64,000 nt of DNA, from the NCBI GenBank assembly GCA_013178015.1, contig JABLXR010000005.1, forward strand, positions 38,532 to 102,531. The letters are read 5' to 3'. A program made the translations under genes and the position numbers. The notes below the pieces were generated by a model. That model saw only the letters and a program-made list of their open reading frames with translations, made no database searches and was not told the DNA's origin. Every line of letters begins with the position of its first letter. The stretch's first letter is position 1. Of this stretch, positions 3,841 to 61,456 are shown in pieces. This stretch comes from Anaerolineae bacterium. GTDB lineage: Bacteria > Chloroflexota > Anaerolineae > DRVO01.

Positions 3841-3867
3841 CCGGTAACCTCCTTGCCTCTGCAGAAT

Positions 3868-3958
3868 GATGCGTGATACGTGATGTGTGATGCGTGACAC
3901 GTGGGCTGTATCGGCGAGAGTGGATGTCACGTATCACGTATCACGCATCACGCATCAC
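3868..3958. repeat. Imperfect palindrome built from GTGATAC/GTGATGC direct word repeats
   Basis: Arms GATGCGTGATACGTGATGTGTGATGCGTGACACGTG and GATGTCACGTATCACGTATCACGCATCACGCATCAC lie between the MocR stop and the ECF-S start. It contains the TCACGC core shared with other elements. Confidence 0.6.
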
Positions 3959-5463
3959 ACGAACGGGCGCTCTTGGCTGGGATCGGCGCGGCGGACGCCT
4001 GGCCTCCGGGCCAGGTCTTCGATCGCCCGGGCTAGCCGGCGCACTCCCTCGGCGATCTCGCCCTCGCTCCGGAAGGCGAACCCCAGGCGCATGAAGCCCT
4101 CACCGCCCGCGTGGGTGAAGAACATGGGCCCAGGGGCGAACGAGACTCCCAGTTCCCCAGCTCGCTCCAGCAGGTCGCTCGAGGCCACCCCATCCGGCAG
4201 CGCGCACCACACGTACAGCCCGCCCGCCGGCTGGCTCCAGCCGACGCCAGCCGGCATATGTCGCTCCAGCGCCTGCAGCATGGCGTCCCGGCGGCGGCGG
4301 AACGTCTGCCTCAGCCAGTGGAGATGGGCCGGAAAGGATTCACCTCGCAGCAGATCGTGGACCACCAGTTGCACCAGGTTGTTGGGGTGGAGGTCCATAT
4401 CCTGGCGCAGCCGCAGGAGGGGTTCCACGATGGGAGGCGGCGCCAGCACCCATCCCAACCTCAACCCGGAGCCTAGCAGGGAGGAGAGACCACCCAGATA
4501 CACCACGTAGCCCCCGTCGTCCAGCGAGCGAATGGGCGGCGGCAGGGGGTCCTCGAAGTGAAGCTCCCCATGGAGGTCATCCTCCAGGATGGGGATCTGG
4601 TGGCGCCGGGCCAGGGCCAGCAGCGCCGCCCGGCGGTCGAGGCTCATCAAGCTGCCGGTAGGGTTCTGGAAGTTGGGGTTGGTGTAGATCAGGCGGACGT
4701 CGGCGTGAGCGAGGTAGTGTCCTGCCGCTTCCACCTGCATGCCCTCGTCGTCCACGGGCACGCCCACCGGCCGGGCTCCAATGGAGCGGAACACGGAAAG
4801 GGCTCCCAGGTAGGTGGGAGACTCGACCAGGACCACGTCACCCGGGTCCAGCAGCAAGCGCGCTACCAGGTAGAGCCCCTGCTGGGTGCCAGAGGTGACG
4901 ATCACCTGGCCGGCGGAAGCGTCCCGGCATCCCTTGAACCTGAGCTCCCGTGCCAGTTCCTCCCGCAGCGGAGTGAGACCGGCGATGGGCGAATCCTCCA
5001 GGAGGGCGGCCATGCGGCTATTGACCACTCTCTGGACCACCTGGGCCAGGGCCAGGTGCGGAGAGCCGGTGATGTCTGCCACCCCAGTGGCGAAGGAGAT
5101 CACGCCCGGCCGGGAGCTCAGTTGGGCCACCCTCTCGCCGATGCCCGTCTCCGGCCACCGAGGACGGGACCGCATCAGGCCAGACCAGGCCAGAGGAAGC
5201 GCGGGCGGCTCGGCGAGCTCCTCCGTCGCGCCCAGCACCACGGTACCCACGCCGACGCGCCCTTCCACCAGGCCATCGGCGGCCAGGCTGCCGTAGGCGT
5301 TGACCACAGTGGTGCGGTTGACGCCCAGGCGCTCGGCCAGCTCCCGCTCCGAGGGCAGCCTGTGACCGGCGGGTAGGATCCCCTCCAATATGAGCGCGCG
5401 TATCTGCTGCTCAATCTGGCGGTAGAGAGGGACCTTGCCCTCTCTATCAACGGTCACCTGCAC
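3955..5463 (-). CDS. MocR-family regulator: GntR winged helix-turn-helix fused to a PLP aminotransferase-like domain
   Basis: N-terminal wHTH (PLYRQIEQQIRALILEGILPAGHRLPSERELAERLGVNRTTV) plus a fold-I aminotransferase domain. GTG start at 5463 preceded by AGGAG; the ATG at 5529 is an alternative. Confidence 0.85.
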   Translation of the reverse strand: MQVTVDREGKVPLYRQIEQQIRALILEGILPAGHRLPSERELAERLGVNRTTVVNAYGSLAADGLVEGRVGVGTVVLGATEELAEPPALPLAWSGLMRSRPRWPETGIGERVAQLSSRPGVISFATGVADITGSPHLALAQVVQRVVNSRMAALLEDSPIAGLTPLREELARELRFKGCRDASAGQVIVTSGTQQGLYLVARLLLDPGDVVLVESPTYLGALSVFRSIGARPVGVPVDDEGMQVEAAGHYLAHADVRLIYTNPNFQNPTGSLMSLDRRAALLALARRHQIPILEDDLHGELHFEDPLPPPIRSLDDGGYVVYLGGLSSLLGSGLRLGWVLAPPPIVEPLLRLRQDMDLHPNNLVQLVVHDLLRGESFPAHLHWLRQTFRRRRDAMLQALERHMPAGVGWSQPAGGLYVWCALPDGVASSDLLERAGELGVSFAPGPMFFTHAGGEGFMRLGFAFRSEGEIAEGVRRLARAIEDLARRPGVRRADPSQERPFV

Positions 5464-8522: not shown

Positions 8523-10166
8523 CTATGGCCAGGGCCTGAGGTAGAGCTCACGCACGTAGCGGTCCAGGAAATCAGCCTCCTCCGAGAGCTTGACATGGCC
8601 GATGCGGGGGGCGATCCGCTCAGCATCGGCTCTCCTCTCCCGAGAAAGCAGCATCTGTCTGGCCCCGGTCAGAGCGCCGTTGCCGATCTTGACCAGTTTC
8701 TCCTTCCTGGCCGGAAGAACGCCGATGGCCATGGCACTATCCAGGCTCACGTAGTTGCCGAACCCCCCCGCCAGATAGATCCTGTCAACCCCTTCCAGGT
8801 CGACCCCGTACTTGCGCATCAGGGTCTGCTGGTTGAGGGCGGAGCCCGCCTTGGCCAGCCTCAGCTCGTTTATGTCCTTCTGAGTGATGCCGATCCTGCG
8901 GCCGTTCTGGGAGATGACAAACTCATTAGCTGCCCTGTAGGCCTGGGCCAGCCTGCCGCTCCGATCGATAATTCCGTTCTTCAGCATCTCGGCCAGCAGG
9001 TCTATGAGACCTGACCCGCAGATGCCCACTGCGGGCTTGTCCCCAATGGTCTCATACCGGACCGCCCCATTCAGGATGCTGACGTTCTTGATGGCTCCTT
9101 CTATCGCGCCCGTGCCGCAGCTCACGGTAGCGCCCTCAAACGCGCCCCCGGCAGCGTTTGAGGCGGCCAGGATGCGCTCCCGGCTCCCAATGGCCACTTC
9201 GCCGTTGGTGCCGATATCTACCACCATGACGGGACGCTCCACTCGGTGTAGGCCGCTCGCCAGAATGACGGCTAGGCAGTCGGCCCCCACCTGGCCGGCC
9301 ACGAGAGGAGCGCCGTAGACGTTGGCTCTGGGGTTGATCTCCAAGCCGACTGCATCGGCATCCAGGTTGATGGGCGAAATGTCTTGAGGCTCATACGGGC
9401 TGGTACCCAGTGAGTGGACGCTCAGGCCGAAAAAGAGATTGCGCATGGTGGGGTTGCCCACTACCACGGCCTCGTAGATGTGATCCACTGTGCTCCGGCC
9501 CTCTCTTCCCTCGAAGGTGCGCAGAGCCGAGTTGACCGCCTCCACTACCACGCGCTGGAGCCGTCGGAGGCCATCCTCGTGAGTGTCGGCATAGCCGATC
9601 CGTGAGATGACATCGTCTCCGTAAGCCGCCTGGGGGTTCCTGCAGGCCAGGGTTGCCACTACCTCGCCGCTCTCCAAGTCCACGATCTGGGCTACCAGGG
9701 TAGTGGTCCCCACATCCACAGCTAGGCCGAGAAGCTCGCCTTCGTATGCTCCCAGGGAATGGATCCGCTCCTCGCGCAAGACGACCCGGTCCCCCTCCCT
9801 CGACACGTGGGGATCCAGGCGGATCATCCCCTGGTCCGTGCTCTCCGTGAGGATGGTGTACTCACCGGCCGCCCAGATGTAGACGACGACATCCCTAGCG
9901 CTTGATATGATCCTCGCCTGGCAGGCCAGCCGCTCGTCTCGCGCCAGGGGGAATCTGCGCTCGGCCTCTGTCCTCTCTGCCAGACTCTCGCCTCCGCTCT
10001 CCACCCTGACCACACACTTGCCGCACTGCCCTCGGCCGCCACAAGCGCTGGCTACCTGAATCCCCAGCCGCCAGGCGTGATCCCATAACGTCGCCCCTTC
10101 CTCAATCGAGACGCCGTTCCTGCCCCGGGCGTACTGGGGGAATATCACTCTGTGCTCGTGTGCCAT
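8523..10166 (-). CDS. 2Fe-2S ferredoxin / ASKHA (DUF4445) protein, RACo-like corrinoid reductive activase
   Basis: Plant-type ferredoxin Cys motif (CGGRGQCGKCVV...C) followed by a DUF4445 ATPase-like domain. Start at MAHEH, with GAGGAG 6 nt upstream. Confidence 0.75.
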   Translation of the reverse strand: MAHEHRVIFPQYARGRNGVSIEEGATLWDHAWRLGIQVASACGGRGQCGKCVVRVESGGESLAERTEAERRFPLARDERLACQARIISSARDVVVYIWAAGEYTILTESTDQGMIRLDPHVSREGDRVVLREERIHSLGAYEGELLGLAVDVGTTTLVAQIVDLESGEVVATLACRNPQAAYGDDVISRIGYADTHEDGLRRLQRVVVEAVNSALRTFEGREGRSTVDHIYEAVVVGNPTMRNLFFGLSVHSLGTSPYEPQDISPINLDADAVGLEINPRANVYGAPLVAGQVGADCLAVILASGLHRVERPVMVVDIGTNGEVAIGSRERILAASNAAGGAFEGATVSCGTGAIEGAIKNVSILNGAVRYETIGDKPAVGICGSGLIDLLAEMLKNGIIDRSGRLAQAYRAANEFVISQNGRRIGITQKDINELRLAKAGSALNQQTLMRKYGVDLEGVDRIYLAGGFGNYVSLDSAMAIGVLPARKEKLVKIGNGALTGARQMLLSRERRADAERIAPRIGHVKLSEEADFLDRYVRELYLRPWP

Positions 10167-17645: not shown

Positions 17646-17749
17646 GGCCACAGAGAAGCGGGTGACGTTCCTGAGTACGGGCATGACTCAATCCACTCAA
17701 AGGGGAGTTCCCTTGTTCCATCCTCTGTGTCTCGGTGTCTCTGTGGGCC
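17646..17749. repeat. Imperfect hairpin element of CACAGAGA-word type
   Basis: Arms GGGCCACAGAGAAG and CCTCTGTGTCTCGGTGTCTCTGTGGGCC sit in the divergent region between the GH5-like gene and the purH-like gene. The words match the arms flanking the GxxExxY gene. Confidence 0.55.
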
Positions 17750-29182: not shown

Positions 29183-30643
29183 CTACCTCCTGACAAAGAA
29201 CCGCCCGAAGTTCGACACGTACGTGGGCAGGCGGCGCCAGGTGTCGGGGGAGGTGGCGCGCTGCCAGATCCGGCGGGGACGAAAGTAGAAGCGCCGGTAG
29301 GCCTCGTGGAACTTGCGCTCCACCAACCCCGCCGTCATGTCGCCCATCTCGAAGCGGGCGCGCTCACCGTGAATGGCCAGGTCGTGGTATCCGCTCGCCA
29401 GCAGCCGACCCTCCCGCTGCACCATCTCGTACAGCTCCGTCCCGGGCAACGGGTCGGCCATCATGAAGTTGGCCAGGTCCGGGTCCAGCTCTAGCGCCAG
29501 CCGAATGGTGTCCTCCATGGTCTCTTCGGTCTCTCCCGGTAGGCCGAAGATGAAGAAGCCCATGGTCTGAAGTCCGGCAGCCTTGGCGTTGGCGAAGGCA
29601 GCGCGCACGTCCTCGATCTTCTGTCGCTTCTTGATGGAGTCCAGGATGGCCTGGTTGCCGCTCTCCACCCCGAAGCCCACACGCTTGCAGCCAGCCCGCT
29701 TCATGAGGCGAAAGAGCTCGGCGTCAGTGTGGTCCGCTCGCATACCGTGGATGGTCACCCAGGGGACCGACGCCAGGCCCTCGTCAATGAGCAGATGGCA
29801 AATGCGCTTGGCCCGATCCAGGTCCAGATTCCAGACGTCGTCGGTGACCCCGATCTCGGTGGCCCGCATCTCCCGCACCAGATAGGCCCACTCTTCTACC
29901 ACCCTCTCCGGGGACCGAGCGCGCCAGGTGTTGCCGGTGATGGGCTTGGAGCAGTAGATGCACTGGTAGGGGCAGCCGCGCGAGGTGAGCAGGGTGTAGG
30001 CGCGGGCGTGCTTCTGCAGGCCGTCGGTGAGGGGCTGCAGGTTGGTGTAGCGTTCGATGGGGAAGAGGTGATAGGCGGGCCAGGGCAGGGCATCCACGTC
30101 CTGGCGCAGGGACCGTCCGGGGTTGTGCACCACCTTGCCCTGCTCGTCGCGGAACGAGACTCCGGCGATGCCACCCCAGACCTCCGCCCGAAAACGGCGT
30201 CCGCCCTCTCCCTCCAGGCCGCGGTCGCGTTGCAGGGCACGCATCACCTCGATGATGGTATCCTCGGCCTCGCCGCGCACCACCAGGTCCACCTGGGGCT
30301 TCTCCAGGGACTCGCCGGGATGCAGGGTGAGGTGTGGTCCGCCGAGTATGGTGATGGCGCCGGCGCGGTGGGCCACCTCGGCCGACTGCCAGGCTTCCTC
30401 GATCAGGGGGGTGGGGCTCGAGATGCCTACGACGTCGTAGGAGGCAGATGCCAGCCGGTCCGAGAGGGACCGGTCCTCCACCGACTCCTCGAAGATGTCC
30501 ACCCGGTAGCCGTGCTCAAGGAGGGACCCGGCCAGGTACCCCAGGCCCATGTGTATGTGCGCCCGCGAGTCCCACACGCGGGAGGTGGGGCTGACGAGGA
30601 GGATGTCACTGCCACAGAGGCACGGAGACACAGAGGAGCTCAT
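29183..30643 (-). CDS. B12-binding radical SAM protein (class B radical SAM)
   Basis: N-terminal cobalamin-binding domain and a CPYQCIYC radical SAM cluster motif. The first 11 codons are encoded by a repeat arm. The ATG overlaps the GxxExxY stop (ATGA). Confidence 0.85.
   Translation of the reverse strand: MSSSVSPCLCGSDILLVSPTSRVWDSRAHIHMGLGYLAGSLLEHGYRVDIFEESVEDRSLSDRLASASYDVVGISSPTPLIEEAWQSAEVAHRAGAITILGGPHLTLHPGESLEKPQVDLVVRGEAEDTIIEVMRALQRDRGLEGEGGRRFRAEVWGGIAGVSFRDEQGKVVHNPGRSLRQDVDALPWPAYHLFPIERYTNLQPLTDGLQKHARAYTLLTSRGCPYQCIYCSKPITGNTWRARSPERVVEEWAYLVREMRATEIGVTDDVWNLDLDRAKRICHLLIDEGLASVPWVTIHGMRADHTDAELFRLMKRAGCKRVGFGVESGNQAILDSIKKRQKIEDVRAAFANAKAAGLQTMGFFIFGLPGETEETMEDTIRLALELDPDLANFMMADPLPGTELYEMVQREGRLLASGYHDLAIHGERARFEMGDMTAGLVERKFHEAYRRFYFRPRRIWQRATSPDTWRRLPTYVSNFGRFFVRR
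30612..30638. repeat. Inverted-repeat arm CCACAGAGGCACGGAGACACAGAGGAG (left arm flanking the GxxExxY gene)
   Basis: Near-perfect reverse complement of 31016-31046. It lies inside the 5' coding end of the radical SAM gene. Confidence 0.7.
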
Positions 30644-31011
30644 AGGATGAGACGTTTCACTCCTTGCCTGAGGAGGCGGGTGTTGAGGTTGATGGGCAGG
30701 CCGGCTCTCTTGCCGGTCAGGCGCAGGTAGGTTAGCAGTTGCGCCTCGAAGACCGGATCGTGTCTCTCCACGCTCTCGATCTCCACGATCACGCTGTCGC
30801 CAACCAGCAGGTCGAGGCGGTAGTCACCGATGGGGTGACCATTGTAGACGAAGGGTACGGCCACCTGACGAGCGAACGGGACACGTCGCAGCTGCAGCTC
30901 CGGCGCCAAAGCCTCTTCGTGGGCCACTGCCAGAAGCCCCGGCCCCAAGTGGCGGTGGACCTCGATGGCTGCCTCTATGATCTGTTCGGTCAGCCCGTTG
31001 ATCTCGTCCAA
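30640..31011 (-). CDS. GxxExxY-family protein (PD-(D/E)XK-like), signature residues substituted
   Basis: Family pattern EQIIEAAIEVHRHLGPGLLAVAHEEAL...DYRLDLLVGDSVIVEIESV...AQLLTYLRLTGKRAGLPINLN. The GxxExxY positions read GLLAVAH. TTG start directly after the upstream stop. Confidence 0.7.
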   Translation of the reverse strand: MDEINGLTEQIIEAAIEVHRHLGPGLLAVAHEEALAPELQLRRVPFARQVAVPFVYNGHPIGDYRLDLLVGDSVIVEIESVERHDPVFEAQLLTYLRLTGKRAGLPINLNTRLLRQGVKRLIL

Positions 31012-32013
31012 TCAGCCTCTCTGTGCCTCTGTGCCTCTGTGGCTGGTCTCGACGGCCAGCGTTCGGCGTCGCTTGCGCAGCCACAGGAGCCCGCCGGGGA
31101 GGCTGCTGGTGTAGATGATGAGTTGCATGAGCAGCGAGACGGCGAGCGCTCCCGCGGGCGAGACTACCCCGCCCAGGCTGGAGTAGAGCAGATCGTAGGC
31201 CCCCTGATTGACCCCCAGCCCCCCCAGAGAGGGCACGATCAGAGGAGCGAAGGCGAGCATGGGGTTGAAGAGAAAGACGTATCGCAACGGTATCCCAGCC
31301 CCCACCGCCGTGGCCACCACCCAGTTGACCAGGTTGGAGGTGACGATGACCGCCAGGCCGATGCCGTAGGCCCGGGCCAGGGCGCCGGGATGATCGCGAT
31401 AGGTCTGCAGCGCCTCGGACAGGCGACCGTAGACCGGCTCCAGCCGGGATAGCAGAGGAAGCCGAAAGAGCTGCCCGATGAGCAGCCTGAGCCGGCGGCT
31501 GAAGAGCATCGCCAGGAAGCCGAGCGCTCCAGCGCAGGCAAGCCAGACCACTCCGGCCAGGGGCATCAGGTCGCTGCGACCCCAGCCAAACACGGCCACC
31601 GCCGACATGGCGGCGGCGCTGGTGATGAAGGCGGTGAGGCCCACCAGCCGGTCCACCAGGACGGATATGGCAGCGTCCTCGACGCGACTCAGGTGTCGGG
31701 CCAGGTCATACCCTCGCACCAGGTCGCCCCCTACGTTGGTGGGGAGGAAGTTGCCGAAGAAGAGCCCGGTGAAGGTGAAGGCCAGCAGGTCCGGGTAGGG
31801 CAAGGTCGCGCCCTGGGCCCGCAGGAGCAGGCTCCACTTGGCGGTGTTGAGGGCGATGGCGCCAAAGTACACCGCCAGGGCGGCGACCAGCAGAGGCACC
31901 GAGGCCCCGCCGAGGGTCGCGGCGACGGCATCCAGGTCCACCCGCCAGAGCAAGTAGGCGATCAGCGCCAGGCTAACCGCGATCTTCACCAGGTCTACGG
32001 CCCTCAGCCGCAT
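31012..32013 (-). CDS. Lysylphosphatidylglycerol-synthase-TM-region / flippase-like membrane protein (UPF0104)
   Basis: Start MRLRAVDLVKIAVSLALIAYLLWRVD, then about 8 TM helices. LPG_synthase_TM-like motif GNFLPTNVGGDLVRG. Confidence 0.7.
   Translation of the reverse strand: MRLRAVDLVKIAVSLALIAYLLWRVDLDAVAATLGGASVPLLVAALAVYFGAIALNTAKWSLLLRAQGATLPYPDLLAFTFTGLFFGNFLPTNVGGDLVRGYDLARHLSRVEDAAISVLVDRLVGLTAFITSAAAMSAVAVFGWGRSDLMPLAGVVWLACAGALGFLAMLFSRRLRLLIGQLFRLPLLSRLEPVYGRLSEALQTYRDHPGALARAYGIGLAVIVTSNLVNWVVATAVGAGIPLRYVFLFNPMLAFAPLIVPSLGGLGVNQGAYDLLYSSLGGVVSPAGALAVSLLMQLIIYTSSLPGGLLWLRKRRRTLAVETSHRGTEAQRG
31016..31046. repeat. Inverted-repeat arm CCTCTCTGTGCCTCTGTGCCTCTGTGGCTGG (right arm)
   Basis: Reverse complement of 30612-30638. 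It encodes the last codons (SHRGTEAQRG) of the flippase-like gene. Confidence 0.7.
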
Positions 32014-32065: not shown

Positions 32066-33043
32066 TCATCGCCGGCTCTGAGGCGCCGCCTGCCCCTCCG
32101 GCGACGGTTCGGGTAGGGCGGCTCTCCGCTTGGAAGGCACCGACCGGGCCCCCACGTCCCCCTTCTGGCTCCAGGCCATGTCCCAGACGACATGGGTGCG
32201 CCGGCGCACGTAGTAGTCGTAGCCGCCTAACACGCGCGACAGCGCCTCCACCATGGCGAGGACCGCCAGGGCATATAGCAGCCACAACGCCGACTTGACC
32301 TCGCGCCAGGCCACCTTCAGCACCAACCGATTGTCCAGGCTGGCCACCTTGTGGCCGTACTTGTCCCTGAGGTAAAGGTGGCCAGCGTAGTTGCGCCGCC
32401 TCTGGCGCACAAAGTCGGTGAACGATTCTGGCCCCAGGTTGTACACCACCGCATCGGGGGCGTAGACCACCTTCAGTCCGCGCTTGATGACCAGGCTCTC
32501 CACAAAGGCCTCGTCCATGGCCACGTCGGGCGGTATGGCGTCGAAGACCTTGCGGAAGGCGATGAGCTCACCCAACCGGGGGATCTCCAGGCACAGGTTG
32601 TGCTCCATGGCCAGGCGCAGGTGGGTGAGGAAGCCCACGATGTGCTCCGGGGTGTTGACGGGCACCTTGTGCGCCCCGGTCATGCCTACCGTGGGGTCTC
32701 GAAACATTCCGATCAGGCTCTCGAAGGTGTCGGGGCCGGGCAGGGTATCCCCGCTCTCCACCGCGCAGATGTCCTCGGTGGCATGCTTGAGGAACACGTT
32801 GACGGCCGAGGTCTTGCCCTCGCGCCTTTCTTGGGTGTAGAGCTCTATGCGAGGGTCCCGGGCCATGAACTCCCGCACGATCTCCTCGGTGCGGTCGGTG
32901 CAGGCACTGGCGACCACTACGATCTGGCTAATCGCGACGGTGCTGAGCTGCTGATCCAACAGGGCCTGGAGGAGCCGGCCGATGTTGGCTTCTTCGTTGT
33001 AGGCGGTGATGCCGACGCTGCAACGGATGATCTGGTCAGTCAT
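32066..33043 (-). CDS. Glycosyltransferase family 2
   Basis: GT-A motifs (SVGITAYNEE; DxD-like ESGDT), with a TM region near the C-terminus. Confidence 0.8.
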   Translation of the reverse strand: MTDQIIRCSVGITAYNEEANIGRLLQALLDQQLSTVAISQIVVVASACTDRTEEIVREFMARDPRIELYTQERREGKTSAVNVFLKHATEDICAVESGDTLPGPDTFESLIGMFRDPTVGMTGAHKVPVNTPEHIVGFLTHLRLAMEHNLCLEIPRLGELIAFRKVFDAIPPDVAMDEAFVESLVIKRGLKVVYAPDAVVYNLGPESFTDFVRQRRRNYAGHLYLRDKYGHKVASLDNRLVLKVAWREVKSALWLLYALAVLAMVEALSRVLGGYDYYVRRRTHVVWDMAWSQKGDVGARSVPSKRRAALPEPSPEGQAAPQSRR

Positions 33044-33057
33044 GCCCCTCACCCAGA

Positions 33058-33082
33058 GCCACAGAGACACGAAGACACGGAG
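33058..33082. repeat. Solo arm-like copy CCACAGAGACACGAAGACACGGAGG
   Basis: Same word family as 30612-30638. It sits just upstream of the GT2 start. I found no partner arm. Confidence 0.35.
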
Positions 33083-33086
33083 GTAC

Positions 33087-33322
33087 TCACCGGCGTTCCC
33101 TCTGGCTGGCGTTCAGCACGGTCACGCCCACCACTTCCCCTTCCTGGTAGCGTATGATGATTCATCATCGGTGAGCTCGGAATCGTCGGCGTGGCTCGGC
33201 TTGCGGAAGTTGATGTAGAGAACGTCTGCCTCCTCATCGTACGTCACCCAGATTCGCTTGTGCGAAACCCCAAGCAGTCCAGGAACGAGAGCCAACACCC
33301 TATCCAACTCTACTGTGGCCAC
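33087..33322 (-). pseudogene. DUF2283-family (antitoxin-like) gene with an apparent 1-nt deletion frameshift
   Basis: Frame 0 gives ...IWVTYDEEADVLYINF...SELTDDE, then stops early. The -1 frame continues IIIRYQEGEVVGVTVLNASQRERR, matching the DUF2283 C-terminal consensus (IILDYDKEG.IIGIEILDAS). The shift lies in an AA run inside the palindrome GATGATGAATCATCATC. Confidence 0.5.
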
Positions 33323-33618
33323 AGCTTCACCCTCCTCTCCAACCGTGCTCTTCGTCGGGTAAGGAAGGCAGTGATGACGAAGCCGTCACTGGCACTCAGC
33401 TCTCGATACACCACCAGATACTTGCCCGGGTCTACTTCTCTTACCGCCAGGCACTCACCTGCGCTACCCTGATAGACCGCCTCGGCTCCTACCACCGCCT
33501 CCAGGACCTCGAAGTAGTAGCCGGCCAATTCGGAGTGTTGCTCAGTGATATGAAACCACCTGTCCTGAGAGAGCCGAATGGGTACACCCTTTCTGGAACT
33601 GACCGTTTCCGAGCTCAT
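33310..33618 (-). CDS. DUF4258-like (toxin-like) small protein
   Basis: 103 aa (IRLSQDRWFHITEQHSE...YLVVYRELSASDGFVITAFLTRR). It overlaps the DUF2283 start and abuts the stop of the second radical SAM gene. Confidence 0.5.
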   Translation of the reverse strand: MSSETVSSRKGVPIRLSQDRWFHITEQHSELAGYYFEVLEAVVGAEAVYQGSAGECLAVREVDPGKYLVVYRELSASDGFVITAFLTRRRARLERRVKLWPQ

Positions 33619-41018: not shown

Positions 41019-41804
41019 GTGCGTCCCTATCGCCCCAGCGACCGGGAGGCTGTGCGCTGCCTTTACGCCGACACCGCTTTCTTCGGGGAACCGGTAGAGG
41101 CTTACTTCGACGACCGCAAGCTCTTCGCCGACCTGGGTGTGAGCCTCTACCTGGATCACTACCCCGACTACGCCTTCGTGGCCAGGCAGGTTACAGGGGA
41201 TAGGTTACAGGTGACAGGGGACAGGTTACAGGGAGTGGCCCACGGGACCGAGAGAGGCCCGTCCTCACCCTGTCCCCTATCCCCTGTCCCCTGTAACCTA
41301 TCCCCTGTCACCTGTAACCTATCCGGGTACATTGTGGGGAGCCCGCACGGGGATGCCGACGTGCATCGGCACCTGATGGCGCACCTTCCTGCTATCGTGG
41401 GAAGGCTGGTGCGGGGACGCTACCGCCTGGGCCGCAAGACCATGCTCTACTACCTGGACAACGCCCTGGCCTGGCTGCGAGGGCAGCTGCTGGAGATCCG
41501 CGACCCCGCCTATCCCGCCAACCTGCACATCAACGTCGCCTCGTCTCACCGAGGGCAGGGCCTGGGATGGGAACTGTTGTCCGCTTACCTGGAGCACCTG
41601 CAACGCTGCGGGGTGCCGGGGGTGCACGCGGTCACCACGGATCACAGTCGAGGTGCCGTCAGGCTCTTCCAGAAGGCTGGCTTTCGGCTCTTGGAAGAGA
41701 AGAGCACCTCGGTGTGGCGCCGGCACCTGGGCCGGCAGGTGAGGCTGCTTGGGTTCGGCCTGCGGCTGGATCAGGACGGGCCACCGCCGAGGCGGCCATC
41801 CTAG
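41019..41804 (+). CDS. GNAT-family N-acetyltransferase carrying an in-frame 45-codon repeat insertion
   Basis: GNAT motifs (HINVASSHRGQGLGWELL; FQKAGF). The insertion QVTGDRLQVTGDRLQ...PVTCNLSG sits between beta strands. Confidence 0.7.
   Translation: MRPYRPSDREAVRCLYADTAFFGEPVEAYFDDRKLFADLGVSLYLDHYPDYAFVARQVTGDRLQVTGDRLQGVAHGTERGPSSPCPLSPVPCNLSPVTCNLSGYIVGSPHGDADVHRHLMAHLPAIVGRLVRGRYRLGRKTMLYYLDNALAWLRGQLLEIRDPAYPANLHINVASSHRGQGLGWELLSAYLEHLQRCGVPGVHAVTTDHSRGAVRLFQKAGFRLLEEKSTSVWRRHLGRQVRLLGFGLRLDQDGPPPRRPS
41189..41325. repeat. Intragenic imperfect palindromic element of GTTACAGG/GACAGGG-word type
   Basis: Left arm GGTTACAGGGGATAGGTTACAGGTGACAGGGGACAGGTTACAGGGAG. Right arm CCCTGTCCCCTATCCCCTGTCCCCTGTAACCTATCCCCTGTCACCTGTAACC. 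The GNAT reading frame is preserved through it. Confidence 0.6.
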
Positions 41805-47430: not shown

Positions 47431-47635
47431 GGGGATTCACCGCCGAGATCGCCGAGACCGCAGAGAGAAGCGGAGGAAATGAGATCCGATGTCGTCGCCG
47501 CGGTCGCAATGAGCTACGGGGAAGAGGTGGGTCGGACGGCTGCTCCCGGCCCTGACGCGCCTCAGCAGTGCTTCAGTCGCCTGCCATGTCGTTCTTAGCT
47601 CTCTGACTTCTCGACGACCTCTGCGGTCAACCCCC
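47431..47635. repeat. MITE-like element with terminal inverted repeats GGGGATTCACCGCCGAGA...CCTCTGCGGTCAACCCC
   Basis: The left end GGGATTCACYGC-GAGA-CGC-GAGACCGCAGAGAGAAG is shared with 48439-48629 and 60082-60244. Purine-rich left half, pyrimidine-rich right half. Confidence 0.65.
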
Positions 47636-48438: not shown

Positions 48439-48629
48439 GGGACTCACCGCAAAGATCGCAGAGACCGCAGAGGATTGGCAAAGGCGAAGGGAAGAGGGAT
48501 GCAAGTCGCCGGGGGGATGGGAGGGCAGTGGCTCAGGTGCCCTTGCGCTGGCGGGCTGCGCTCTCTGATGCTCCCTGTACTCTCTCTGCGTCTTCTCTGC
48601 GTTCTCGGCCATCTCTGCGGTGATATCCC
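48439..48629. repeat. MITE-like element, same family (GGGACTCACCGCAAAGATCGCAGAGACCGCAGAGG...CTCTGCGGTGATATCCC)
   Basis: It exactly fills the spacer between the isomerase stop (48433) and the hemW ATG (48636). Confidence 0.65.
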
Positions 48630-51724: not shown

Positions 51725-51795
51725 CCTCACGCAAAGACGCCAAGGCGCAAAGGAGTACGGCAAGGGATCTTGGCCTCCTTGCGCCTTTGCGTGAG
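51725..51795. repeat. Imperfect hairpin element of CGCAAAG-word type
   Basis: CCTCACGCAAAGACGCCAAGGCGCAAAGGAG...CTCCTTGCGCCTTTGCGTGAG sits between the dnaA stop and the stop of the convergent ATC-hydrolase-like gene. Its words match 556-619. Confidence 0.6.
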
Positions 51796-51809
51796 TATCC
51801 CTGCTCCAG

Positions 51810-52525: not shown

Positions 52526-53131
52526 CTAGTCCTCCCGACGCGCTGCCAGCAGCTCTCGTAGGCTCTCGGCGGTGAGGCTGGCGCCGGTCAGGTCCAGCCC
52601 ACTGAGGTCGAGCCCCTGCAGGTCTGCTCCCTCTTCGAGTACGGCCCCGGTGAGGTCGGCGTTCTCCAGGTTGCTCCCTTGCAGGTTGACTCTGGGCAAC
52701 ACCGCTCCCGTCAGGTCGGCCTGGCGCAGGGTGGCTCCCTGCAGGTTGGCCTCCCGCAGGACGGCCCCGGTGAGGTCGGCCCGGCGGAGGTCGGCGTTCT
52801 GCAGGTTGGCCCGTCGCAGGACGGCTCCGGTGAGGTCGCTGCCGCGCAGGTCGGCACCCTGCAGGTTGGCGTCCTGCAGGTCGGCTCCCGTGAGGTCGGC
52901 GGCCTCCAGCCTGGCGCCCCGGAGTCGGGTGCCCCTCAGGTTGGCTCCGGCAGCGTTGTCCAGGACAGGCCGGGCGCGGGGCGGCCTGGGCGGGGGCTCC
53001 AGCCTACCCCGTCGCGAAGAGGGAGCAGCCGGTTGCCGGTGGGCGAGGGCCGCGAGGAGGCCGTCGGCCTCCTCGGCAGTGATGCGGCCTTCCTGCACCA
53101 TTCTCAGTATCCGCATTCGCTCTTCGCTCAT
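52526..53131 (-). CDS. SHOCT-like N-terminal domain + pentapeptide-repeat protein
   Basis: N-terminal MSEERMRILRMVQEGRITAEEADGLLAAL, then about 20 A(D/N)LxG pentapeptide repeats. Confidence 0.75.
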   Translation of the reverse strand: MSEERMRILRMVQEGRITAEEADGLLAALAHRQPAAPSSRRGRLEPPPRPPRARPVLDNAAGANLRGTRLRGARLEAADLTGADLQDANLQGADLRGSDLTGAVLRRANLQNADLRRADLTGAVLREANLQGATLRQADLTGAVLPRVNLQGSNLENADLTGAVLEEGADLQGLDLSGLDLTGASLTAESLRELLAARRED

Positions 53132-53140
53132 GCCTGCCTC

Positions 53141-54196
53141 TCAGTTAGCTTCGCGCCGCTGGCGCAGCGCGCGCACCTCCGCGGCGCTCAGGCGGGCGCC
53201 GGTCAGGTCGAGGTCCCGGAGATCCAGGCCGCTCAGATCGGCACCTTCTTCGAACACCGTGCCCATCAGAGACGAGTCCCTCAGGTCTGTCCCCTGGAGG
53301 TTGGCCTTGGGCAATACCGCCCCCATCAGGTCGGCATCGCGGAGGACCGCGCCCTGCAGATTGGCGCCGTCTAGGACTGCGCCCATCAGGTTGGCGTCCC
53401 GTAGGTCGGCGCCCTCCAGGTTGGCGTCCCGCAGAATGGCTCCCTTGAGATCGGCATCGCGCAGATCGGCGTCGTGCAGGTTGGCGCCGGTGAGGTTGGC
53501 TCCCTTGAGGTCGGCACCCTCGAGCCTCGCCCCCTCTAGGTTGGTGCCCTCCAACACTGCCCCGGCGAGGTTGCCGAATGAGGCCCCGTGCCTGTCCGCC
53601 CTCTCTGCCCTGGCGGCGTCCCTCTCCAGGCGCGCGGTCATCCGCTGCAGCTCGGCGTTCAGCCGGCGCACGGCCGCCTCGATCTGGGGCTGCACCTCTT
53701 TCATCGTCTGCTCGGTGGCGGCCCGCACCGAATCCACCAGCCGCTCCGCCTGAGCCGCTATCTGCTGCCTCTGGGTGGAGTCAACCATCTCATTGATCAT
53801 CCGGCTCACTTCCTGGGCCAGCCTGTTCGCGTGCCCCTCGAACTCCTTCCAGTACTCGGAGTGGAAGCCGGCTCGCACAGCCTCGCCTACGCTCTCGCCC
53901 AGGTCCGCCAACTGCTCCTCCACCTCGCGCCAGGCCTCCTGGGTGCGCTTCCAGTCCTGACGCTGGCGCTCGGGCTCGGGCGCGCCGGGCATCTTCTCGG
54001 CGACGGGCTTTCCCTCGGCGGTCGGCGGCTCCGACGTCTCAGCTACTGGTTCCGGCGAAGGCTCGGGCGGCCGGGGCGGTTCCTCTACCACCGGCGGCTC
54101 GCCCAGGGCCTCCAGGAGGTCGTTGGCCTCCTCGGGGGTAAGCCTACCCTCCTGGAGCATTCTCAGTATCCGCAGCCGTTCCTCGCTCATGGCCAT
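53141..54196 (-). CDS. SHOCT-like N-terminal domain + coiled-coil + pentapeptide-repeat protein, paralog of 52526-53131
   Basis: Start MAMSEERLRILRMLQEGRLTPEEANDLLEAL, with GGGAGGG upstream. A Pro/Glu linker, a charged helical middle, then pentapeptide repeats. Confidence 0.75.
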   Translation of the reverse strand: MAMSEERLRILRMLQEGRLTPEEANDLLEALGEPPVVEEPPRPPEPSPEPVAETSEPPTAEGKPVAEKMPGAPEPERQRQDWKRTQEAWREVEEQLADLGESVGEAVRAGFHSEYWKEFEGHANRLAQEVSRMINEMVDSTQRQQIAAQAERLVDSVRAATEQTMKEVQPQIEAAVRRLNAELQRMTARLERDAARAERADRHGASFGNLAGAVLEGTNLEGARLEGADLKGANLTGANLHDADLRDADLKGAILRDANLEGADLRDANLMGAVLDGANLQGAVLRDADLMGAVLPKANLQGTDLRDSSLMGTVFEEGADLSGLDLRDLDLTGARLSAAEVRALRQRREAN

Positions 54197-60081: not shown

Positions 60082-60244
60082 GGGATTCACTGCAGAGACC
60101 GCTGAGACCGCAGAGAGAAGATGAAGAGGCTGGGCGAAGGCCATCAGGTTCTCAGGCTAGCCACATTCCCGCCGACCGTCTTTCCCTGTCCCCTCCCTTC
60201 TGAGCGCTTTCTCCGCGGTCTCTGCGTTCTTTGCGGTGAGACCC
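60082..60244. repeat. MITE-like element, same family (GGGATTCACTGCAGAGACCGCTGAGACCGCAGAGAGAAG...CTTTGCGGTGAGACCC)
   Basis: It exactly fills the spacer between the GH127 start (60019) and the stop of the second URO-D-like gene (60246). Confidence 0.65.
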
Positions 60245-61310: not shown

Positions 61311-61456
61311 GGGACGCAGACGCGGAGAGGGGGAGACACGGAGACACGGAGAGGGGGAGAGGGGGAGATGGTGAGACGCGGAGAGAGGGAGACTGCCCCC
61401 TGGTCGTAGCGTCTCGGTATCTCCCCCTCTCCGCGTCTCCCCCTCTCCCCCTCCCC
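61311..61456. repeat. Imperfect hairpin element of GGAGA-word type
   Basis: Left arm GACGCGGAGAGGGGGAGACACGGAGACACGGAGAGGGGGAGAGGG..., right arm its pyrimidine-rich complement. It shares the word CACGGAGACAC with the arms flanking the GxxExxY gene. Confidence 0.65.

Follow-up and report, generated by a model that had tools for sequence, protein, structure and literature searches.

The 64-kb window analysed here (the whole stretch of DNA studied, from a metagenome-assembled genome of an Anaerolineae bacterium) contains an operon in which a small gene of the GxxExxY family lies between two inverted repeat arms and shares its ends with both neighbouring genes. All genes at this locus are on the minus strand, and the order rSAM1, GT2, flippase-like gene, rSAM2 is conserved between the window and its relatives. 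The flippase-like gene (LPG_synthase_TM / TIGR00374) occupies 31012-32013, the longest open reading frame (ORF) reaching 32193, and is followed by the degenerate GxxExxY ORF (PDDEXK_3; 30640-31011, 372 nt, 123 amino acids) and by rSAM2, a B12-binding radical SAM gene at 29183-30643. A preliminary description had placed the GxxExxY ORF between inverted repeats supplying the termini of both neighbours, and the positions of arms, ORF, stops and starts confirm this arrangement. The TTG start of the ORF (31011-31009) directly follows the flippase-like stop (31014-31012), and its TGA (30642-30640) overlaps the rSAM2 ATG (30643-30641) as ATGA, both as first described. The right arm codes for SHRGTEAQRG*, the last 10 codons and the stop of the flippase-like protein, and the left arm for SSSVSPCLCG, residues 2-11 of the rSAM2 protein, so that the arm covers the first 9-13 codons of that gene. 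The sole other in-frame rSAM2 start before the conserved ILLVSP motif is a GTG at codon 5 (30631), still within the arm; the NCBI annotation takes this GTG start (482 amino acids).

The arms, recovered by a repeat search at 30611-30652 and 31002-31043, are 42 nt long, 83% complementary and 349 nt apart. Each is an inverted array of three 8-nt units (CACAGAGN / NCTCTGTG), the left core (30613-30636) reading CACAGAGG CACGGAGA CACAGAGG and the right core (31019-31042) CTCTGTGC CTCTGTGC CTCTGTGG. On the minus strand, on which the cassette is read, the right core is the 5' arm, with the units CACAGAGG CACAGAGG CACAGAGA, and the left core the 3' arm, with CTCTGTGT CTCCGTGC CTCTGTGG. The element as a whole is about 435 nt long, some 29 base pairs of stem enclosing the 123-residue ORF. 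When a 457-nt stretch containing it is folded as RNA, the arms close the structure as its outermost stem, in the minimum-free-energy fold as well as in the centroid (z = -4.46). With up to 2 mismatches allowed, the window contains 7 matches to the arm word where 0.35 would be expected, and none of 100 shuffles yields as many as 7.

The enclosed protein is a minimal Cas4-like PD-(D/E)XK nuclease of about 123 amino acids. Its family, PF13366/TIGR04256 (PDDEXK_3), is listed as being of unknown function (Steczkiewicz et al. 2012, PMC3424549) and comprises 13,871 clusters at 50% identity (E-value up to 1e-10). Like the members of the family, the window ORF scores far above both curated cut-offs (111.4 bits for PF13366, cut-off 22; 115.7 bits for TIGR04256, cut-off 35); unlike them, it is devoid of the residues that name and define the family. 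The degenerate signature reported earlier is genuine: the copy reads GLLAVAH where relatives have GLLESVY, with the E and Y of GxxExxY lost, and the lysine of the E-x-K motif has gone as well (VEIESVE against VEIKSVE in orthologues). D67, E77, Q91 and Y95 are kept. Searches of PHROGs, PADLOC and PDB sequences with the GxxExxY protein gave no matches, and no relatives were found in the viral contigs searched.

The wider relevance of the arms emerges from 80 metagenome loci selected solely for the similarity of their GxxExxY proteins to the window copy (48-63% identity). Arrays of units resembling C[AG]CNGAG reach a density of 4.73 per kb up to 200 nt from the gene and of 0.21 per kb elsewhere in those loci, a 22-fold enrichment, the background in 0.8 Mb of other Anaerolineae DNA being 0.043 per kb. 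Among the 62 loci with full flanks, a purine-rich 5' array is present in 51, a complementary 3' array in 47 and both in 41, and strong stems (score at least 36, about 23-47 bp) were found in 44 of about 83 loci. The unit differs from locus to locus and both arms change together (CACAGAG/CTCTGTG, CACGGAG/CTCCGTG, CGCAGAG/CTCTGCG, CACGAAG/CTTCGTG, CGCCAAG/CTTGGCG). Across 27 clean stems of three 8-nt units per arm, 87.4% of cells pair, double changes are seen in 13/29 pairs and compensatory cells number 56 against 29.3 +/- 4.1 in shuffles (0/500 reach 56), the covariation counts being inflated by the many orthologous insertions in the set (e.g. upstream of trpC), which make the cells non-independent. 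Covariation extends beyond the arrays to the base of the stem (TTAGCC/GGCTAA, TTCACC/GGTGAA), and the eighth unit position is unpaired in about half of the cells. Since inverted arrays of 8-9-nt units flank GxxExxY genes across several phyla, the gene and the arms appear to belong together, the arms being, on this evidence, intrinsic to the family. The cassette class is represented in at least five phyla (Chloroflexota, Bacteroidota, Pseudomonadota, Gemmatimonadota and, probably, Acidobacteriota).

In 75-79% of loci the neighbours are read in the same direction as the cassette, and about a quarter of these cases have an upstream ORF that continues into the arm; the shared termini seen in the window are thus a recurrent outcome. 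Many GxxExxY proteins in the databases bear N-terminal tails, PQRHRDTE or ISHRDTE, that are translated arms. A count of arm peptides in the N-terminal extensions of the 150 most diverse representatives was made by crude motif matching (10/66) and is not used as evidence. The literature on GxxExxY, PF13366, TIGR04256, PDDEXK_3 and the arm sequences, most subscription journals lying outside the search, yielded no account of the association, and no relevant family was returned by Rfam for the whole window (gathering thresholds) or for 15 loci and the Bacteroides record treated below (E-value thresholds). The class is widespread and apparently undescribed.

It could be supposed that the gene merely landed by chance in the loop of a pre-existing host hairpin of the repetitive extragenic palindromic (REP) or terminator type, with arms irrelevant to the gene. 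Cargo-less hairpins of short tandem units are indeed common in the window, some of them built of unrelated 7-nt units, yet the array enrichment largely refutes this idea: the same arm consensus and architecture surround blindly picked GxxExxY genes in many environments and phyla, and no clear hairpin lies at the empty junctions of two relatives (L005, L013; loci are designated by such numbers). Chance landing is accordingly regarded as highly improbable. The earlier proposal of a small cargo-carrying member of a repeat family holds insofar as the arm family recurs within the window; its implication of a repeat peculiar to this genome with incidental cargo does not, as the arms flank GxxExxY genes across phyla.

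Cassettes of this class also occupy the genomes of cultured bacteria. In Bacteroides finegoldii the order is radA, cassette, FAD protein; in Bernardetia the cassette separates adenine deaminase from mannose-1-phosphate guanylyltransferase; and in Sphingomonas parapaucimobilis (NZ_CP155749.1, L174, 1462-1932) it lies between fabD and fabG, within the core fatty-acid synthesis operon. The annotated GxxExxY protein of the Sphingomonas locus (142 amino acids) has a C-terminus extended by the translated 3' arm (…ASSRLRV…). Gemmatirosa kalamazoonensis has a pseudogene adjoining cargo-less hairpins. The matching arm or hairpin sequence is also dispersed in the genomes of all three hosts tested, Bacteroides, Sphingomonas and Gemmatirosa. 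The Gemmatirosa cargo-less hairpin recurs at no fewer than 39 places (at least 39) on each of two megaplasmids; Sphingomonas arm matches are confined to Sphingomonas and Sphingopyxis records; Bacteroides arms match 15 Bacteroides records, mostly in unannotated DNA, and in a single 24.8-kb Bacteroides record the unit CACAGAGGA makes up the hairpin around the cassette, a solo arm and two hairpins without cargo. Hairpins of the cargo-less kind were observed directly in Gemmatirosa, in that Bacteroides record and at several sites of the window. In the B. finegoldii record (L176, NZ_OY725952.1) one such hairpin, 8749-8889, falls within the 5' end, as annotated, of the coding sequence 8731-9846 ('zinc ribbon domain-containing protein'), whose start has probably been called too far upstream, through the repeat.

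Within the window, a third copy of the arm word had been noted at 33058; it belongs to a solo 3'-type arm of four units (33052-33083, minus strand) just upstream of the GT2 start codon at 33043, which is also present in the relative L002 and for which no partner arm was found. The fourth family member, at 17646-17749, proved to be a cargo-less intergenic hairpin of the CACAGAG unit type with an intact right and a degenerate left arm. Another cargo-less intergenic hairpin, of the related CGCAGAG unit type (TTCAC-TGCAGAGACCGCTGAGACCGCAGAG ... CTCCGCGGTCTCTGCGTTCTTTGCGGTGAGA), lies at 60085-60244, with akin hairpins at 556-618, 48445-48620 and 51726-51796 and a solo arm at 47436-47470. Between neighbouring hairpins only ordinary host genes were found when other cargo was sought between arm pairs. 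At 61314-61455 a further cargo-less intergenic hairpin has a long left arm in which ACGGAGAC and GGAGAGGG units are mixed and which pairs with units of the TCTCCCCC type (-102 kcal/mol when folded as RNA), and may be a hybrid or expanding family member. Two strong intergenic hairpins of tandem 7-nt units, at 3866-3960 and 41186-41325 (-60 and -101 kcal/mol), repeat the architecture of the 8-nt ones with unrelated unit sequences, the first having TGATGCG/TCACGCA and the second CAGGTGA-type/CCCTGTC-type units under a super-period of 21 nt. Neither showed a connection with GxxExxY genes.

A few loci (L093, L147, L155, L156) have the gene between two complete short hairpins rather than inside one, and some arm ends, TTAGCC...GGCTAA, loosely recall attC core sites, which brings to mind an integron-type gene cassette bounded by attC-like recombination sites. 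The arms of the window, CCACAGAG...CTCTGTGG, are nevertheless free of GTTRRRY or RYYYAAC cores on inspection, neither an integrase nor a cassette array appears in the gene tables of the fetched loci, the insertions sit in housekeeping operons, and attC sites are not made of tandem 8-nt units; an integron origin is scarcely credible.

The history of the insertion can be followed at the flippase/rSAM2 junction, for which orthologous loci were obtained through protein look-ups and a scan of GTDB species genomes. In the close relatives L005/L006 and L013 the flippase stop overlaps the rSAM2 ATG with nothing between, and it is because of these empty sites that the proposed insertion into an operon junction is upheld. 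The cassette with both arms is found at the same junction in the window and in L002, L003, L007, L008 and L009, whereas in L004 (3921-4411) and L012 (3261-3751) the junction holds a two-gene insert (76 and 87 amino acids) with no Pfam match on record. Most rSAM2 orthologues begin M-x-(x)-ILLVSP, the SVSPCL-type extension being restricted to the cassette-bearing ones. In the rSAM2 tree empty sites are basal, and the filled loci form one clade (69% support) with L004, the replaced site, nested within; the simplest history that this topology suggests would be one old gain followed by one replacement. Intact copies of the GxxExxY gene (L002, L003, L007, L008) are separated by a synonymous divergence (dS) above 1.2, with a ratio of non-synonymous to synonymous divergence (dN/dS) of 0.07-0.11, and the insertion is therefore old and the protein functional in these lineages. 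As five further lineages share gene, arms and junction, with synonymous sites saturated, the cassette appears to have been inherited vertically from an old insertion, with no recent hop. The possibility, raised at the outset, that relatives would carry the same arms and gene at this junction, making the arrangement ancient, is thus realised in part. Between the window and its nearest relative, L009, dN/dS of the GxxExxY gene is 0.75, indicative of near-neutral evolution; the nuclease of the window is decaying, and the window instance is an ordinary, dying member of the cassette class. The idea of domestication into both reading frames consequently stands for the arms and for the open frame, with its stop, start and coupling signals, and fails for the nuclease, which is near-neutral here.

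Traces of further events are visible at and around this site. L008 (4373-4500) has an intact cassette and arm, then a remnant of 18 C-terminal codons from an older GxxExxY copy (THLLGQGVKRLGL*), and behind this remnant a degenerate old arm now codes for the rSAM2 N-terminus (MNDSAPQRLSGKS, equal in length to MSSSVSPCLCGSD). The distant relative L029 has a truncated GxxExxY gene of another subfamily directly upstream of rSAM2, between CCACAAAGGACACAAA ... CTCTTTGTGG. Both remnants hint at cassette turnover. At L170 two tandem cassettes, with proteins 93% identical, form a duplication; because the repeated unit also takes in host flank of about 30 nt, unequal crossing-over is indicated and not transposition. 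At the 'empty' junctions, the flippase C-terminal coding region of L005 (5940-6005) reads GAAGAGAGAGC...CCTCTCCCTCCCC, and in L013 GGCAAAGGCCGAGAGAGCGCAGAC immediately precedes the ATGA; these sequences could be eroded arms, in which case the sites would be losses and not never-occupied.

Filled and empty alleles of one junction among close relatives, together with the turnover indicated by the older copy behind the intact cassette of L008 and the recurrent insertion indicated by the different-subfamily remnant of L029 upstream of the same radical SAM gene, are also what a free-standing homing endonuclease gene might leave. Such a gene would cut the empty junction and be copied in by repair, with the arms as by-products or as insulators lowering the cost to the operon; PD-(D/E)XK homing endonucleases exist, and one of them, I-Bth0305I, is a weak Foldseek match. 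On the host gene tree, however, the filled loci are nearly monophyletic, and the recurrence is explained by a permissive site, because the junction also takes toxin-antitoxin-like pairs. Homing predicts neither arms conserved across phyla nor dispersed cargo-less hairpins, and it is considered decidedly unlikely.

The arms of the orthologous cassettes allow the level of their conservation to be judged. Among lineages in which identity at shared four-fold sites is down to 37%, the 48 arm positions retain 90% identity, yet the arm-encoded peptides of the cassette-bearing lineages vary at the eighth position of each unit; conservation of the arms is thus at the level of nucleic acid, not of protein. 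Whether DNA or RNA is the molecule concerned bears on an RNA-level alternative, in which the element would resemble an intervening sequence (IVS): the arms pair in the transcript, RNase III cuts the stem and frees the GxxExxY mRNA, and the cassette is thereby tolerated in operons. The anatomy is close to that of the Coxiella IVS (PMC4990558), the arms close both predicted RNA folds, and because neighbours are so often co-oriented the arms are usually co-transcribed. Arm mismatches are nonetheless strand-symmetric, with 46 of G:T type against 44 of A:C type on the sense strand, so that the excess of G:U-type over A:C-type mismatches expected of an RNA stem is missing. The arms are moreover translated in the neighbours (in the window and in the trpC-linked loci), where a cut would cost them a stop and a start codon, and the stem would be melted by passing ribosomes. 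The 80 loci all lie outside rRNA (the Rfam rRNA check gave no match in the window or in any of the 80/80 GxxExxY loci), and dispersed cargo-less hairpins are left unexplained. This alternative is judged unlikely, if less so than homing. Splicing of the cassette from the window RNA with rejoining of exons was considered separately and rejected, because no in-frame or start-restoring junction would result.

The explanation favoured here combines these observations: a widespread class of GxxExxY cassettes, a single old insertion at this locus and arms that serve as cis sites of the nuclease, a mechanism that we infer. Taken whole, it is given somewhat better than even credence. The element at 30611-31043 would be one member of a class of small cassettes, each consisting of a GxxExxY gene inside two inverted arrays of 8-9-nt units able to pair into a stem of about 25-45 bp. 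It presumably entered once, in the ancestry of an Anaerolineae clade, at the flippase-like/rSAM2 junction, where an ATGA overlap had until then coupled translation of the two genes, and was vertically inherited thereafter. The upstream gene would read through the 5' arm to a stop right before the cassette start codon, while the cassette stop overlaps a new ATG and the downstream gene would have the translated 3' arm at its beginning. Strong purifying selection acts on the nuclease in most lineages; in the window lineage its catalytic residues are gone and it drifts, the open frame and arms persisting probably because termination, initiation and ribosome hand-over in both neighbours have come to rely on them. 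The ORF would be kept open because rSAM2 has no usable ribosome-binding site of its own and would be reached by ribosomes terminating at the overlapping TGA. The arms themselves may be cis-acting sites recognised at the DNA level by the enclosed nuclease, which would maintain or spread its own cassette and the dispersed cargo-less hairpins of the same unit type, as RAYTs do REPIN hairpins. The strand-symmetric mismatches fit such a DNA-level constraint. This REPIN-RAYT-like model is favoured over the IVS-like one because of that symmetry and because the arms are translated in several loci, in which ribosomes would unwind an mRNA stem.

Several points weigh against the cis-site explanation. The link between nuclease and arms is positional and evolutionary, drawn from sequence comparison, and the symmetric mismatch pattern is also compatible with an RNA-level function. 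A PD-(D/E)XK nuclease alone cannot rejoin DNA and is no transposase in the RAYT sense, and any spread would therefore proceed via host repair or recombination. At datable loci the cassette is stably vertical and not visibly mobile. By eye, no target-site duplication was seen at clean boundaries, and arm complementarity runs on into the flanks. The survey of hairpins in the source genome covers the 64-kb window, and the loops of its cargo-less hairpins show no similarity to the cassette interior at z > 3, so that these hairpins are not obvious deletion derivatives of the cassette.

It is intriguing to hypothesize that GxxExxY nucleases and tandem 8-9-nt-unit hairpins constitute a second class of intragenomic replicators, independent of RAYTs, in which the nuclease recognises the arrays and maintains or propagates both cassette and cargo-less hairpins; this broader proposition is tentative and, at present, rather doubtful. 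If true, it would supply a function for a family of more than 13,000 sequence clusters that is now without one. The covarying arm package already opens the anonymous PF13366/TIGR04256 domain to experiment, since cargo-less hairpins scattered over the same genomes are built of the same arrays, and a cis element, a candidate enzyme and cultivable hosts (Bacteroides, Sphingomonas, Gemmatirosa) have now all been identified. The cassette further illustrates how a selfish gene can live in essential operons such as fabD-fabG without polar damage, by bringing its own stop and start codons and a ribosome hand-over, and the window illustrates how, once its enzyme is defunct, it can still contribute structurally to the reading frames on either side. 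In annotation, recurrent odd peptide tails on predicted proteins (PQRHRDTE, SHRGTEAQRG, SVSPCLCG) can be recognised as translated arms.

The junctions of the rSAM operon in general merit mention, small selfish-looking genes having settled in them repeatedly, among these the pairs of L004 and L012 described above. Between rSAM1 and GT2 the window carries a two-gene insert resembling a toxin-antitoxin pair (33122-33618, minus strand), made up of a 102-residue ORF without a family, overlapping the rSAM1 stop, and a DUF2283 protein of 66 amino acids. The DUF2283 gene of this junction is kept in L007 and L008, fragments of both genes are all that is present in L005, and L004 has a ParE-type pair instead. 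Elsewhere in the window, coding sequence includes long arrays (52704-53524) that repeat every 15 nt and also show periods of 30 and 60 nt; they look like a gene for a pentapeptide-repeat protein and are unrelated to the cassette.

Comparison with known systems places the cassette between several of them. Free-standing homing endonuclease genes spread by intronless homing, as between conserved genes of phage T4, and the cassette resembles them as a small nuclease gene inserted between conserved genes, with filled and empty sites among relatives and signs of turnover (L008, L029). It differs in having arms conserved across phyla and cargo-less copies dispersed in the genome, and in appearing, from the rSAM2 tree, mostly vertical at its locus instead of patchy. 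The likeness to the 23S rRNA IVS of Coxiella and Leptospira (PMC4990558) is almost exact in dimensions, the Coxiella element of 428-444 nt having a 28-bp terminal stem that encloses a small ORF (S23p), as against a common size of about 430-444 nt, a terminal stem of about 28 bp and a single small ORF. Both sit inside an essential transcript without destroying it, and both are vertically inherited, with ORFs prone to decay. The cassette, however, lies between protein-coding genes and not in an rRNA helix (9, 25 or 45), encodes PF13366 and not the S23p four-helix bundle, has arms composed of unit arrays and gives no sign of RNA-level selection, the sense-strand wobble excess being absent. A connection of GxxExxY and four-helix-bundle proteins with intervening sequences may be mentioned in curated family notes, but it carries no weight in the present assessment.

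The REPIN-RAYT system (Bertels and Rainey, PMC3116915, PMC3337134, bioRxiv 10.1101/2021.07.10.451892) likewise has a small gene flanked on both sides by a short repeat in inverted orientation, further copies of which are scattered over intergenic DNA as doublets that are separated by a short spacer and can form hairpins, and it shares with the cassette long-term vertical inheritance, a protein under purifying selection and recurrence of the gene-flanking repeat type in the same genome (here in Bacteroides, Sphingomonas, Gemmatirosa and the window). The differences lie in the protein, a Cas4-like PD-(D/E)XK nuclease and not an IS200/IS605-like HUH/Y1 transposase, and in mobilisation, which for the cassette is hypothetical. 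They extend to the arms, which are tandem arrays of 8-9-nt units without the GTAG motif of REP and pair with each other across the gene, and to the setting, the cassette being typically co-directional inside operons and giving its neighbours stop and start codons. By analogy, then, the cassette would work most like REPIN-RAYT and look most like an ORF-bearing 23S intervening sequence, while being a member of neither.

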